Source: Candidatus Bathyarchaeota archaeon (GTDB taxonomy: Archaea > Thermoproteota > Bathyarchaeia > 40CM-2-53-6). Taken from it: a DNA stretch of 64,000 nucleotides. The stretch is taken from positions 14,452-78,451 of the forward strand of contig CAWIHH010000004.1 of assembly GCA_963835925.1 (NCBI GenBank), given 5' to 3'. Numbering within the stretch: the first letter of the stretch is position 1; the number at the start of each line of letters is the position of its first letter. A model generated the notes under the pieces. That model was not told where the DNA came from. It did no database searches and was given only the letters and a program-made list of their open reading frames with translations. This document shows, piece by piece, positions 46,342 to 56,918 of the stretch. Both the position numbers and the translations under genes were made by a program.

Positions 46342-47022
46342 TCAAGTGCTTTCACGGCAGTCTTCTCCTTGAGATTCCTTTTTCACATACGCTTGCAGGA
46401 TTTCTGCTTGGACGATCAATGAAAGGAGTGCCACGCCGAATACCATCGCTTGTATTGTGTCTCTGTAATTGCTTTCTGGGTGAGAGGACTAGTGCGATTG
46501 AGACTGCTCCACGTAGCCCCGCAAAGGCTAGGATCCTTTTCCATGAGGCCGGTATCTTCTCTCCCATTAGTTGAGCGAACCATAGGATTGGGTAGACGCT
46601 GAGGATTCTCGAGATGATTATGGCCGCGAAAGCCACGATTATGAATGGGGCGTAGGCGATCAGCAGCTTGAAGTCGGCTTTCAACCCGATGAGTAGAAAG
46701 GCGAAGGCTGTGGCAAGAAAGGTCACCATCTCCCAAAATTTTATCATCGTTTCACGGGTTTCCTCTGACATGGCTGTTCGCATCGTCCGGTTCCCCATGT
46801 ACAAGACGGCGATGGGTACTGCAATCAGACCTGACACGCCTAGGCTCTCTGCAAGCACGTAGGAACCGTACATGACCGCTATGGTGAAGGATGTTTCCGC
46901 GAGAGGGTCCGTGATCAACTTGTGGAGCAGTTCAGCAACGCCTGACACCAGCAGACCGATTCCAACTCCTCCTAGCAGAGTGACACCGAATTGGCTCAGG
47001 CCGCTTGCGACATTTCATCTGG
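46342..47022 (-). pseudogene. nhaP: Na+/H+ antiporter (NhaP/CPA1) fragment, 5'-truncated and frameshifted
   Basis: Only the C-terminal TM region is present (..LAESLGVSGLIAV..AGLRGAVSIALVLS, then LPESNYRDTIQAMVFGVALLSLIVQ in another frame). An in-frame stop lies at approx. 47022 with no N-terminal half. Confidence 0.6.
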
Positions 47023-47039
47023 CGACATATCGAATCTGT

Positions 47040-47399
47040 TTAGATGATTGAGTTGGATGGATTAATACCTAACCCAGCATTCACCCCTTGACCTATCTCT
47101 AATCTACGCCTCTTATAGAAGTCAACTACCGCTTCATTGATGAATGTACTAAGATCACTATCATACCCACGCTTCCTAGCATAGTCATACAGCAATAACG
47201 GTACTGGATCGATCTTCGCGCTCTTAGTGATAGGTGTTAACTCTAGTTCAACTGATCTACCTAATGGTTGACTAGATAGGATAGTAGATGACAACGATGG
47301 TGCATCTGATGGTTGAGTAGGTATAGTAGATGACAACGATGGTGCATCTGATGGTTGAGTAGGTATAGGGGATGGTATACCTGATGGTTGAGTAGGCAC
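47040..47399 (-). CDS. repeat-containing protein with RHH-like C-terminal domain
   Basis: The N-terminus has Pro/Ser/Thr-rich 14-aa tandem repeats (IPTQPSDAPSLSST). The C-terminus is IDPVPLLLYDYARKRGYDSDLSTFINEAVVDFYKRR. The frame stays open upstream to 47513 without an ATG. Confidence 0.4.
   Translation of the reverse strand: MPTQPSGIPSPIPTQPSDAPSLSSTIPTQPSDAPSLSSTILSSQPLGRSVELELTPITKSAKIDPVPLLLYDYARKRGYDSDLSTFINEAVVDFYKRRRLEIGQGVNAGLGINPSNSII
47261..47397. repeat. tandem repeat, approx. 42-bp unit, 3-4 copies
   Basis: The core ctgatggttgagtagg recurs at 47306, 47348 and 47381, with a variant at 47261. Units 47264-47305 and 47306-47347 are near-identical. Confidence 0.85.
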
Positions 47400-47454
47400 A
47401 TTGCTTGTATCCTGTATTTGAAGCTGAATTTTGGAGCTAGGTTGAGAAGGGGAT

Positions 47455-47485
47455 GATAGGATAGTAGGATAGTAGGATAGTAGGT
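47455..47485. repeat. 8-bp microsatellite (GATAGTAG)n, approx. 3.5 units
   Basis: ataggatagtaggatagtaggatagtagg, read directly. Confidence 0.85.
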
Positions 47486-47488
47486 TGG

Positions 47489-48197
47489 ATGATGGAGTGG
47501 TATTGGGATGCTTTCAGGAATGTTCTGCCTGAATGGTTGGACTTCCAAGGTCGAATGACTTTGAGCTCACCAGAACAATGCGTCTGACCCGTTCAATGCT
47601 GCGTTGAATTATGGGTACGGCTTTCTTGAAGGCGAATGCAGAATGGCGATTAACTGCTGTTGGCTTGGAACCATGCGGTCGGATTTCTGCATGACTTTAG
47701 TGATTACCAGACGAAGCAATCCTTAGCCTATGATCTTGCAGGAACCGTTCAGGTGGATAGTTGACCTATCGGTGATTCAAGCTTTCGAGTCGAAGGTCTT
47801 AGGCTTGCATGATTTCTATTTCACTGGTGATGATTACCGTTACCGGTTCGAGACTGAAGCGAAGCAGCGTTTTATTGATTTGATTCGTGAACGATTCAAC
47901 GCTGGAGTAGGTACAAAGGGTCGAGTTCTGAAATGGGATACGGTGATCGAACAGAAAACTGAAGAGCTAGGCAGATATTTGACAGGAAAATCATCCACGC
48001 TTGACTTCGTCGAACCTGCACCAAGCCTGGAAAGGCAGGATAGCCGAGAGTTGCGATCTAAGATTCTTGCGCTAACTCAATCTCAAGCTAGACAGCTCGG
48101 AATTGGGAAGAGCACGCTCTACTACTTGCGAAGAAATGCAAGAATGCGCCGACCCATCGTGGTCTATAGCAAGCTTCTTGAGAAGTTGGTTCAGTGA
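47489..48197 (+). pseudogene. cas1: Cas1/casposase-like gene remnant with C-terminal HTH; N-terminal domain missing, at least 3 frameshifts or stops
   Basis: YWDAFRNVLPEWLDFQGR, DPFNAALNYGYGFLE, VGFLHDFSDYQTKQSLAYDL and QEPFRWIVD (Cas1 core motifs) lie in three frames. The intact tail 47730-48197 ends with the HTH SQARQLGIGKSTLYYLRRNA. Confidence 0.65.
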
Positions 48198-49941
48198 GTT
48201 GTTTGGCAAGACAATCGGGCGGTATCTCGGCGTTCTAAGCTTTGCAACAGTAGCACTCATACTAAGCCCAAGATATCTCTCTGCTGACTTCAACGCCGCC
48301 ATGGCTAACGATCCGCAGAAATTCATAGAACTCATTGTTGTTTACTACGGATTGCTCTCTATTCCAGTAGCTTGGTCAATATTCCCATCGCTACTGAGGG
48401 TCCCCAAGGCTAGAGGTTACATAGCTACCGCAATATTCTCGGTATTTCTAGTGTCATCCAGAGTTGTCACATATTTTGGACTTGGCAACCCTGAACGCCT
48501 CCTCGACATCCTCGTCGGTGCAATCATACTGTATGTCCTGAGGGAAGTAGTGAGCACTAAGGAAAAAGCACCACTAGGGTCCCCCACACCGGCATTCTTG
48601 GATTTTGGCCAACAATTCGCTTCAGGGTTGGTCTATTTCGGCACAGTGACAGCTGCAGAAGTGATAATCTTATGGTCGACACGGGGAATGCTACCGTATC
48701 CGTATCTAACAGCTGGCATCTGGGCGTCATTGGCGCTGATTTTTGGGTTGCCCATTTTGCGTGTCTATGCTCGTGGTTTTGCTGAGGAGGGGATATCCAT
48801 TCGAAGCTTCTTCGCCTCCATGAAGTCAGCGAAGGAAATGGAAAGATTGGCCGTCATTTCTAATCTGTCAGTGATTGGTGTTCTACTCGCTCACGTCACT
48901 TACGCTTCAAGTGTAGAATTGCATTCAATAATCTACGCTATCGTACTCCTGGGCTTGCCCAGTACCTCATCTCTTCCTACGCTACTGGTGGTGGCTCTCT
49001 ACGCATTGGTATTCGCCTTGCTCATAGCCATGGCAATCACTCCGTTATGGGTTAATTATAGATCTCTTGGGATGAGCGAAGACGATATTCGAAGAATAAT
49101 GGAGAGCAAGACCATCTGGCGGACACCGCTTATTATCCAAGACTTGCTTACGGCTTTGACGTTTGGATTGATCAAGACGGACTTGTTCTTGGTAATCCCC
49201 TTAACGCTCTTTGGAGTCACACCAAACAGATTGCTCTCATTCCCGAATGAAGCCTACATCCTTCTTGTAACCATAATACTGCTGTTCTTCGGTCGCATCT
49301 TGACTACTCTTGCAGGGAGAAGCTTCCCCCTCTACGCCCTAGGCATCGTCATGGCACCTATCAGCATAGTGTTTTCGACTTCTCTCGACTTCTTTCATAC
49401 GGACATCAAAAGACGGCTCCTTCGTCACTACGCTAGACTCCAAGAGCAATTGCCGCTTATCATTGAGCGACTAGAGAAAGCCGCAACAAATGAATACGAT
49501 CTACTCTTGTTGCGACTGATTTCACGGTACGGGCTCTTGGACCAAGAAATCATTGGTGGAAAACACGGGCTTCCTGGGATTAGACCGGTTGACATAGATC
49601 CAGTTGCACGTGTTTTGAATTTGAGCATCAGAGATAGGAAATCCAAGAAATTGGCGCAGATATCCATACCACTTGACGTAGAGACTGCGCACCTTCTAGA
49701 AAGTTGCCTCTCCGGCGTCACTCCAACAAATCGTATTTTCCAAATCTCAAGAATGCAGTTGTGGGCAAGAATCATCCACCTTGCCAAGCGTGCTGCAGAG
49801 AATCCACTTCAGATTACGACGTTTCGATTAAGAGCCCACTTTGTGACATACTGTTCAAAGAATCTACCATCCGATGTAGCAGAGCAGCTGAGGACACGAA
49901 GTGTTACGAATCCGTCTAGCCCTGACACCCATATCCGGTAG
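48103..49941 (+). CDS. polytopic membrane protein with C-terminal degenerate tyrosine-recombinase-like domain
   Basis: About 10-12 TM segments fill the first approx. 440 aa. The last approx. 170 aa resemble an integrase catalytic domain (..IPLDVETAHLLESCL..RIFQISRMQLWARIIHLAKRA..ITTFRLRAHFVTY..) but with substituted catalytic positions. The true start is probably downstream of 48197. Confidence 0.5.
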   Translation: MGRARSTTCEEMQECADPSWSIASFLRSWFSELFGKTIGRYLGVLSFATVALILSPRYLSADFNAAMANDPQKFIELIVVYYGLLSIPVAWSIFPSLLRVPKARGYIATAIFSVFLVSSRVVTYFGLGNPERLLDILVGAIILYVLREVVSTKEKAPLGSPTPAFLDFGQQFASGLVYFGTVTAAEVIILWSTRGMLPYPYLTAGIWASLALIFGLPILRVYARGFAEEGISIRSFFASMKSAKEMERLAVISNLSVIGVLLAHVTYASSVELHSIIYAIVLLGLPSTSSLPTLLVVALYALVFALLIAMAITPLWVNYRSLGMSEDDIRRIMESKTIWRTPLIIQDLLTALTFGLIKTDLFLVIPLTLFGVTPNRLLSFPNEAYILLVTIILLFFGRILTTLAGRSFPLYALGIVMAPISIVFSTSLDFFHTDIKRRLLRHYARLQEQLPLIIERLEKAATNEYDLLLLRLISRYGLLDQEIIGGKHGLPGIRPVDIDPVARVLNLSIRDRKSKKLAQISIPLDVETAHLLESCLSGVTPTNRIFQISRMQLWARIIHLAKRAAENPLQITTFRLRAHFVTYCSKNLPSDVAEQLRTRSVTNPSSPDTHIR

Positions 49942-49990
49942 AGGCTATGCTATTTCCAATACCAATTGCGGTAGTGCTTTCAGGTTTTTT

Positions 49991-50030
49991 GTGTGTGTGG
50001 TATCAGTGGTGCGGGCAACGTAATTTGAAC
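49991..50030 (+). repeat. intergenic repeat family copy (short form)
   Basis: gtgtgtgtggtatcagtggtgcgggcaacgtaatttgaac matches 36 of 40 positions of the copy at 56854-56893. Confidence 0.75.
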
Positions 50031-50468: not shown

Positions 50469-50570
50469 GCTGCGAGCTAAGCGAGCAGTTAGAATGTGTG
50501 TGTGAGGCATAGCTGGTGCGAGCACCAGAATTTGAATCGTCGTCGTTCGGTCATTTAGTGTGTGTGCACC
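50469..50570 (+). repeat. intergenic repeat family copy (full form)
   Basis: gctgcgagctaagcgagca ..gtgtgtgtgaggcatagctggtgcgagcaccagaatttgaat, plus a second gtgtgtgtgcacc at 50558-50570. Confidence 0.75.
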
Positions 50571-50623
50571 ATTGATACGGGGATATAGGTAAGATTAGAT
50601 TTTAGACAGGTCACTGTCTTATT

Positions 50624-51385
50624 GTGGTGTTTTACTTGTCATCAACTTGCCCGTCCTGCGGCCAGCCTTTGGCGACGAACGCAAACTTCTGCGCCTCATG
50701 TGGAGTTAGACTAGCTGCTCCGAGTTCAGCGGGTTCATCTGCTTCTATTGCGAATCAATCTTTACGCTCCATTTTCTCGCAATCCGAATATGTAGTCGAA
50801 AAGAATCTGCTCACCAGCGGGGTCGGGCTAGGAAGTATCCGTTCAACTGAGGATACCTTCGAAATCAAAGACAAGAGTGGAAGTCTTCTTGCCAGCGTAA
50901 AGCGTAAGGGATTCGACACAGGAGACGGGTTGCGGGTTTTCATTGTGGAAACTCCAAGCGGCGAACAAGTTGCGGAATTACGCAAAAACGTATTCCAACT
51001 CGGCGACCTAATGAACATGGACGCCTTAAAGGACAAGCCTTCGTATGAAGCGTTTGACTCAACGGGACGATTATTCGCATCAATAAAACATAAACCCTCA
51101 AAACCCGGCGCGAGGTTTTCAGCCGACGTACCCTGCATCATTGATAACAACGGCCAAGAGATTGCGAGATTAGACTACGGTGGCATCATCCTATCAAAGC
51201 AGTGGACACTCAAATCCTCGGACAGCTTAACAATCGCAACCATACGCGCTCAAACAGTGCCGCGAGAAACTTATACTGTGGAAATCGTGAACTTCGCCAC
51301 AGAACCGTACGTTATCCTGCTAACCCTATTCGGAATGATACCAGAATCCACCAATATGCCTCATCATCCTCACATTCACCATTGA
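50624..51385 (+). CDS. zinc-ribbon protein with beta-rich C-terminal domain (possibly LURP-one/scramblase-like)
   Basis: N-terminal CPSCGQPLATNANFCASCG. The remainder has alternating beta-strand-like repeats (FEIKDKSGSLLASVKRK.., FIVETPSGEQVAELRK..). The family call is tentative. Confidence 0.4.
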   Translation: MVFYLSSTCPSCGQPLATNANFCASCGVRLAAPSSAGSSASIANQSLRSIFSQSEYVVEKNLLTSGVGLGSIRSTEDTFEIKDKSGSLLASVKRKGFDTGDGLRVFIVETPSGEQVAELRKNVFQLGDLMNMDALKDKPSYEAFDSTGRLFASIKHKPSKPGARFSADVPCIIDNNGQEIARLDYGGIILSKQWTLKSSDSLTIATIRAQTVPRETYTVEIVNFATEPYVILLTLFGMIPESTNMPHHPHIHH

Positions 51386-51495
51386 CAAGCATTCAATTCA
51401 TTCGTTCGTTTCTTGACGGAGTACGCATCACCACACTCACCATATGACAACGCAGCGAAAACAGCATTCAACCTCACACGTAATGACAAAACCGT

Positions 51496-51570
51496 TTTGC
51501 GAGCGAAGCGAGCACGTCCGTCGGTCGAAAAGTGTGTGTGGGTCTAGTGGTGCCAGCACCTGAATTTGCG
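51496..51570 (+). repeat. intergenic repeat family copy (full form)
   Basis: tttgcgagcgaagcgagca ..gtgtgtgtgggtctagtggtgccagcacctgaatttgcg. Confidence 0.75.
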
Positions 51571-51599
51571 TCGTCTGATCTTGACTCAATGTCTATGCA

Positions 51600-56815: not shown

Positions 56816-56918
56816 GCGATGAGAAAGGAGTTTCTGCGAGCGTAGCGAGCATTCGTGTGTGTGGTACTACTGGTGCGAGCAACGTAATTTGAACTGATGT
56901 TCTTTGTGTGTGGTGCTC
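56816..56918 (+). repeat. intergenic repeat family copy (full form)
   Basis: gcgatgagaaaggag-tttctgcgagcgtagcgagca-ttc-gtgtgtgtggtactactggtgcgagcaacgtaatttgaac, plus a second tgtgtgtggtgctcg at 56904-56918. Confidence 0.8.

Follow-up and report, generated by a model that had tools for sequence, protein, structure and literature searches.

What does a protein that joins a large membrane domain to a recombinase-like tail do directly behind the remains of a casposase gene, and is it a genuine gene? The question is raised by an open reading frame (ORF) in a stretch of 64,000 nucleotides (nt) from Candidatus Bathyarchaeota archaeon (GenBank assembly GCA_963835925.1, contig CAWIHH010000004.1, positions 14,452 to 78,451), which is referred to as the window; window coordinates are counted from its first letter. 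Casposases are the transposases from which CRISPR adaptation evolved, and casposons, the transposons that use a Cas1 casposase, reportedly fall into families 1-4 (Krupovic et al. 2014, 2019). To judge by sequence comparison, the ORF is a real and conserved accessory gene of Bathyarchaeia that is carried on mobile elements and codes for a membrane domain with a catalytically dead recombinase tail. By analogy with known repressors, its product may be held at the membrane and act, as a DNA-binding regulator or an exclusion factor, on recombination-site-like element DNA, a reading to which we give somewhat better than even odds (about 0.55). The locus comprises the following features (lengths in amino acids, aa; pI, isoelectric point):

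47565..48197, plus strand: casposase (Cas1) remnant, 5'-truncated and frameshifted (frames 47565-47726, 47654-47764 and 47727-48197)
48103..49941, plus strand: membrane/integrase-like ORF with candidate starts at TTG 48103 (612 aa), ATG 48136 (601 aa) and TTG 48199 (580 aa)
48181..49398, plus strand: polytopic membrane domain with 11-12 hydrophobic helices and a conserved SLDFFH motif at its end (hydropathy and AlphaFold secondary structure)
49399..49902, plus strand: basic linker helix and predicted catalytically dead tyrosine-recombinase catalytic domain, pI ~10

A recombinase-like tail behind a membrane domain

The C-terminal ~170 residues are a tyrosine-recombinase catalytic domain (~150 aa), joined to the membrane part by a long basic helix. 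The order of recombinase motifs that the first-pass annotation had read by eye in this region was confirmed by MAFFT and hhalign alignments, and the integrase fold that it proposed was detected by profile and structure searches. Briefly, in an exhaustive HMMER search of 1.8 billion protein representatives, the profile of the family described below gave E values of 4.5e-14 to 8e-4 for 24 further proteins, all but one of which matched over profile positions 430-575; of 26 proteins scanned, 23 contain Pfam Phage_integrase. The tail alignment of the five family members matched 18 small integrases with 99.8% probability in hhalign (E 4.6e-29, 138 columns), and one member, P0008, even alone matches NCBIfam XerA_Arch (E 3.3e-4), while the window protein gave nothing in PADLOC, PHROGs or NCBIfam. 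A domain model of the tail, built from a deeper alignment, reached a predicted local distance difference test (pLDDT) score of 89.7 and was matched by Foldseek to XerD and XerA with a probability of 1.0; the structural matches also include MrpR/YopR and the phi3T repressor SroF. The match opens at the XerA interdomain linker (residue 99) and everything upstream is transmembrane, so that a core-binding (SAM-like) domain is absent.

The catalytic positions were taken from the MAFFT and hhalign alignments and are given in the numbering of the 612-aa frame:

49537..49539, plus strand: L479 at the position of Arg I (GLR-x-x-E box), Leu or Thr across the family
49822..49833, plus strand: HxxR box, reading F-R-L-R (MAFFT/hhalign)
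49822, plus strand: F574 at the position of His II, Phe or Tyr across the family
49831, plus strand: R577, Arg II, kept (retained in four of five members, Asn in P0004)
49897..49938, plus strand: R599 at the His III column (Arg or Lys across the family), followed by a 13-residue non-conserved, disordered, Tyr-free tail
No coordinates: Tyr nucleophile, absent in the window protein and in the family, the helix bearing it being missing

Neither alignment recovers the set of catalytic residues. The loss claimed by the first-pass annotation stands for Arg I (Leu), His II (Phe) and His III (no His); Arg II is retained. Its change of an LGH motif to LRT is right in that no register yields a His III, but its own register was off by one (RTR in MAFFT); likewise, its pairing of the terminal Tyr with an Asp is that of MAFFT, but the entire Tyr helix is absent there and a 10-residue tail is unique to the window copy. 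Homologues stop three residues past the His III column and no member has a Tyr beyond it, and the extra, non-conserved residues of the window copy (about a dozen, none of them Tyr) have pLDDT < 50. The hairpin of the catalytic Lys has stayed basic, the exact Lys equivalence being ambiguous. Given that the C-terminal domain is better conserved than the membrane part (mean pairwise identity 45.8% versus 37.3%), and that the replacement residues are conserved in type (always Phe/Tyr in the His II column and always Arg/Lys in the His III column), the comparison argues for a domain that was remodelled, became non-catalytic and was kept under selection, rather than one that simply decayed. Such a tail would be unable to cut or rejoin DNA. 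It is highly improbable that the protein is a still-active recombinase, working through non-canonical residues or with a Tyr supplied in trans as textbook Flp-type enzymes do, as it has lost four of six catalytic positions, a Tyr past the His III column is lacking throughout the family and there is no core-binding domain, even though Arg II and the basic beta-hairpin are kept.

In front of the tail, 11-12 hydrophobic segments were found in the first ~420 residues, ending at about residue 430 (hydropathy; AlphaFold secondary structure), in agreement with the approximately 10-12 transmembrane helices proposed earlier. This membrane domain has no match among Pfam, NCBIfam, PHROG or PADLOC families, and a word-index search with its profile gave no new relatives. 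Its sole relative outside the family is P0027, a protein of 440 aa that consists of the membrane domain only and ends at a true stop codon; the columns invariant even in this protein include an Arg within helix 3 and a Glu within helix 5. Past the last helix, the tails of the family members carry 28-36 Lys and Arg residues (pI 9.8-11.1) and, because they are so strongly basic, would face the cytoplasm according to the positive-inside rule. The retention of intra-helix polar residues in P0027 and the very existence of a stand-alone form are what one would look for if the membrane domain were the working part (a transporter, a channel or a lipid/glycan enzyme) and the tail were regulatory or structural and did not bind DNA. 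We consider this rather doubtful, since the tail is the better conserved part and strongly basic (pI ~10), the steady linkage to Cas1 or integrase genes (see below) points to DNA transactions, and no transporter or enzyme family matches.

The frame itself is open over 612 codons as first described, uninterrupted from a TTG at 48103 to 49941; the protein, however, probably starts at 48199 or 48136 and not at 48103. The public gene call uses ATG 48136 (product P0002, 601 aa), while the homologues measure 568-582 aa and begin to align only at residue 17 of P0002 or later. TTG 48199 lies one base past the TGA (48195-48197) of the Cas1 remnant, and as its 580-aa product fits the length of the homologues and reproduces their stop-start coupling, it is the likeliest start on sequence grounds. 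The gene is single copy in its genome, and copies from different samples are identical in DNA.

A rare family on mobile elements

The family comprises five lineages of Bathyarchaeia with 42-49% identity and one shared architecture. Two full-length relatives (P0003 and P0004, 42-43% identity) were obtained by word-index search, and the exhaustive HMMER search added P0008 (582 aa) and a fragment, P0007, whose full-length form (568 aa, 43% identical) was recovered from metagenome contig L100 by a scan with the C-terminal domain. Collinearity extends all the way from the first transmembrane helix to the C-terminus, with no frameshift, and independent contigs that stem from different samples code for the same proteins. 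The concern that the long frame might result from fusing two genes is thus settled by the four further lineages in which the full-length architecture was found (42-49% identity, collinear). The frame does sit amid decayed mobile-element debris (the Cas1 remnant, a truncated nhaP gene and repeats), as would befit a pseudogene, a chance frame or an assembly or annotation fusion, but this explanation retains hardly any probability and is refuted by the full-length homologues in four other lineages and by the recurrence of the same protein on independent contigs.

The distribution of the gene is sparse. No copy was detected in 22 species of its genus, in 105 genomes of the order or in 400 genomes sampled from the phylum, the gene follows none of 45 Cas1 loci from species-representative genomes, and the full-length alignment had no match in collections of genome, metagenome and viral contigs. 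It is therefore a rare accessory gene.

As to its origin, the best-scoring active relatives of the tail are catalytic-domain-only proteins of ~190 aa, with all six catalytic residues (R-K-H-R-H-Y) and the RYGL...LPGIR insert of the family; two of them (L030 and L031) occur in genomes of the taxonomic family to which the window genome belongs. These small Bathyarchaeia recombinases (e.g., P0012 and the ORFs in L030/L031) and the archaeal XerA (PDB 4a8e, 5hxy) have a catalytic-domain fold homologous to that of the family, with which they share RYGL-x3-E-x-x-G-x3-LPGIR-x-x-D, the RLR box and, past the hairpin, a PLD motif. In contrast to them, the family is devoid of Arg I, His II, His III and the Tyr helix, and is fused behind ~12 transmembrane helices; the core-binding domain is present in XerA but absent in both the family and the small relatives. 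Since small recombinases occur in the same taxonomic family and a stand-alone membrane protein exists (P0027), the family may have arisen when a local small recombinase was fused to a membrane protein. In two of the small-integrase relatives (P0009, 380 aa, and P0010, 223 aa), the catalytic domain is duplicated in tandem and the first of the two copies is without Arg I (GLN or GLS for GLR), as though a recombinase domain had degenerated here a second time and independently.

The casposase remnant next to the gene, which the first-pass annotation had pointed out, is real (Pfam Cas_Cas1), and the linkage is stronger than was claimed, as four of the five lineages (window, L002, L003 and L100) have Cas1 or a 3' remnant of it immediately upstream. 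In the window, the remnant covers Pfam Cas_Cas1 profile positions 182-212 (positions 182-281 with one in-frame TAG in the whole-genome scan), keeps an intact C-terminal helix-turn-helix (HTH) tail up to its TGA at 48195-48197, and shares 56-61% identity with the Cas1 that precedes the homologues. Cas1 stops 0 nt before the gene in L003 and 12 nt before it in L002, and in both it appears intact apart from being truncated by the end of the contig; in L100 only the last ~94 residues are left (L100:2541-2822), directly upstream of the family member. Based on this stop-start coupling, the gene was probably co-transcribed with the casposase gene originally. Both loci with a decayed Cas1 (window and L100) retain the 3' end of cas1, as would be expected if expression signals for the downstream gene lie there. 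The fifth locus, that of P0008 (L015, also L016), has no Cas1; there, the gene is part of a 3.4-kb island (L015:886-4367) between 66-nt direct repeats, which correspond to the 3' part of a tRNA-Val (91% identical), and the only other gene of the island is a tyrosine integrase broken by two in-frame stops. From the Cas1-linked loci and the tRNA-Val island it follows that the gene travels on at least two kinds of mobile element. At three loci, the family gene is intact beside a decayed mobility gene, which suggests that its role is independent of transposition.

The operon-like coupling to cas1 (0-13 nt spacing or overlap) could also mean that the tail is a docking subunit that pairs with an active recombinase or casposase and recruits it to the membrane or poisons its assembly in a dominant-negative manner; recombinases such as Cre and XerCD assemble, as textbooks describe, by exchange of C-terminal segments, and exactly this segment is missing in the family. 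Nevertheless, this is unlikely, given that the gene is intact where the casposase is a remnant of 94-210 aa, and that seven paralogous casposase genes of the same genome precede other, unrelated genes. A predicted complex between the Cas1 fragment of L003 and the cognate C-terminal domain had a score of 0.00, which speaks neither for nor against binding.

The casposase background of the genome is rich. Eleven Cas1 matches were found in 2.35 Mb (e.g., C4:134878, C4:204748, C4:1286475, C1:91404, C1:302476 and C1:329548), and a single Bathyarchaeial casposase clade accounts for eight of them if the remnant is included, the seven others of this clade being 56-68% identical to the remnant. Each Cas1 paralogue (loci L044-L051) precedes a different gene, most of these without a Pfam family, and the dead-integrase domain is found in no gene adjoining any Cas1 paralogue of the genome. 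The single protein-primed PolB (C4:956660) adjoins a different Cas1, far from the locus of the gene, and no bracketing terminal inverted repeats were detected within 7 kb on either side of five paralogous Cas1 loci. The Cas1 set of this genome may represent an unusual, polymerase-less family of casposase elements. Loci of the same Cas1 clade occur mainly in Bathyarchaeia genomes that were assembled from metagenomes of soil, peat and sediment.

The family member in L100 is directly followed, in the same orientation, by a gene (L100:4859-5626) for a ThsB-like TIR-domain protein (Pfam TIR_2 E 1.5e-15; PADLOC ThsB E 1e-7). This neighbour, together with the patchy accessory distribution on mobile elements and the intactness of the gene while adjacent mobility genes decay, brings up a possible, though clearly less favoured, role as an abortive-infection or defence effector, in which the dead domain would sense invading or recombining DNA and gate depolarisation or permeabilisation of the membrane, with a logic comparable to that of RexAB or of defence proteins that combine a sensor with a membrane effector. 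Casposons are known to carry nuclease or defence-type cargo (PMC6563490). However, no PADLOC-DB 2.0 model matches any of the five family members at E 0.1 (a miss that a new kind of system would also produce), the defence-type neighbour is present at one locus only, and known membrane effectors are usually small, with 1-4 helices instead of 12.

Precedents and probable function

The closest functional precedent by analogy would be MrpR/YopR of the Bacillus prophage SPbeta (PDB 8a0a, 8bj6), in which a mobile-element recombinase fold persists without recombination, as is proposed from sequence for the family. MrpR is described in PMC10516654 as a master repressor that binds DNA; its fold is that of tyrosine recombinases, but recombinase function has been lost. 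The similarity of MrpR and SroF to the family is at the level of the fold, with no specific sequence relation shown; moreover, MrpR/YopR and SroF of phage phi3T (PDB 9rgl, 9rd5) are soluble two-domain repressors of bacterial phages, whereas the family is membrane-integral, archaeal and linked to casposases. A more general likeness exists to the membrane-anchored DNA-handling proteins of the FtsK/SpoIIIE and ToxR/CadC types, which similarly combine a membrane domain with a cytoplasmic DNA-binding module, but neither an ATPase motor nor a winged-helix output domain is present in the family, which is related to them in neither sequence nor fold. Compared with casposons, the locus shares the casposase-type Cas1 with a C-terminal HTH, directly upstream of the family gene and in operon-like coupling, but no PolB and no terminal inverted repeats were found, either at the locus, where the left part of the element is destroyed, or beside the paralogous Cas1 genes; the contigs of the homologues are too short to show such repeats. 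For thaumarchaeal casposons, PMC6563490 lists nucleases, methyltransferases and HTH proteins as cargo, and it mentions "membrane protein" twice, at least once for a VirB6/TrbL conjugation protein.

Taken with these precedents, the preferred reading of the protein as a tethered DNA-binding regulator or exclusion factor would work as follows. The basic cytoplasmic tail would act as a non-catalytic nucleic-acid-binding module held at the membrane and would recognise recombination-site-like DNA of its own or of competing elements, while the membrane domain would supply either the signal input or the place of action; the protein would in this way bring DNA recognition to the membrane.

Several points weigh against this reading. 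Pfam Phage_integrase (PF00589) does not match the window protein, whole or tail, even at E 10, and a profile made from the family only reaches XerD among PDB sequences only at E ~1; thus, the sequence link from the tail to recombinases is transitive, by way of the small integrases. Tyrosine-recombinase catalytic domains bind DNA weakly without a core-binding domain, and the window protein has none. The cytoplasmic location that we infer for the tail derives only from the positive-inside rule, and the AlphaFold model of the membrane part, although all-helical, has pLDDT of 30-55, so that fold and topology are poorly modelled. A domain of 12 helices is also large for a mere anchor, and the main activity may reside there. 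Finally, the five lineages are represented mostly by short contigs, on which the boundaries of the mobile elements are not definable.

A more specific but only tentative reading takes the gene as an accessory module of Bathyarchaeial casposons, whose membrane-anchored dead recombinase would capture element or invader DNA at the envelope and would remain useful to the host after decay of the casposase. Its role could then be the exclusion of, or defence against, competing elements, or a membrane-coupled transfer of the element itself. If this capture reading is true, it would be the first membrane function tied to casposons as well as the first membrane-integral exaptation of a tyrosine recombinase.

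The architecture had been flagged as unrecognised, and the literature searched, both for a membrane domain joined to a dead recombinase and for casposons in Bathyarchaeia, contained no description of either. Inactive tyrosine-recombinase folds of mobile elements that were exapted are already known; the membrane-integral architecture and the casposase linkage are new. Dead recombinases reused as DNA-binding regulators comprise a few soluble phage repressors, and the family would represent the same exaptation in archaea, joined to a large membrane domain and tied to casposases. If the tail does bind DNA, mobile-element DNA or its control would be placed at the membrane, which is part of no casposon model. 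The repeated survival of the gene beside decayed mobility genes makes it a candidate for host-beneficial cargo (defence or exclusion) in a major uncultured soil lineage. With the donor clade identified, its small active relatives would also illustrate one way of turning a catalytic-domain-only recombinase into a binding module.

Flanks of the gene in the window

On the left, the element has been destroyed. A repeated unit (47022-47496) abuts the break in the Cas1 remnant, and the preceding gene for an nhaP-type Na+/H+ antiporter (46352-47014) keeps only profile positions 170-343; its homology to intact orthologues of the same genus stops at 47005, and the other half is absent from the assembly (73% complete). 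Synteny with nhaP loci of the same genus did not delimit the insertion, as homology stops on both sides of the gene fragment. The repeated unit carries a repeat-rich ORF on the minus strand (47040-47513) and is present in three genomic copies, with 96.5% and 88.6% identity.

On the right, one feature directly follows the stop codon of the gene and may mark the end of its transcript:

49975..50030, plus strand: T6 run and a copy of the multi-copy intergenic repeat of the genome

This short repeat (GT run, GGTGCG(A/G)GCA box, AATTTGAA) is found at 49975-50030, 50495-50566 and 56852-56912 of the window, and on all contigs. Further downstream, the gene for a protein with a zinc ribbon and a LURP-one-related-like domain, together with its flanks (50509-51574), has a 98.6% identical copy at C4:641000-642070 of the same genome.

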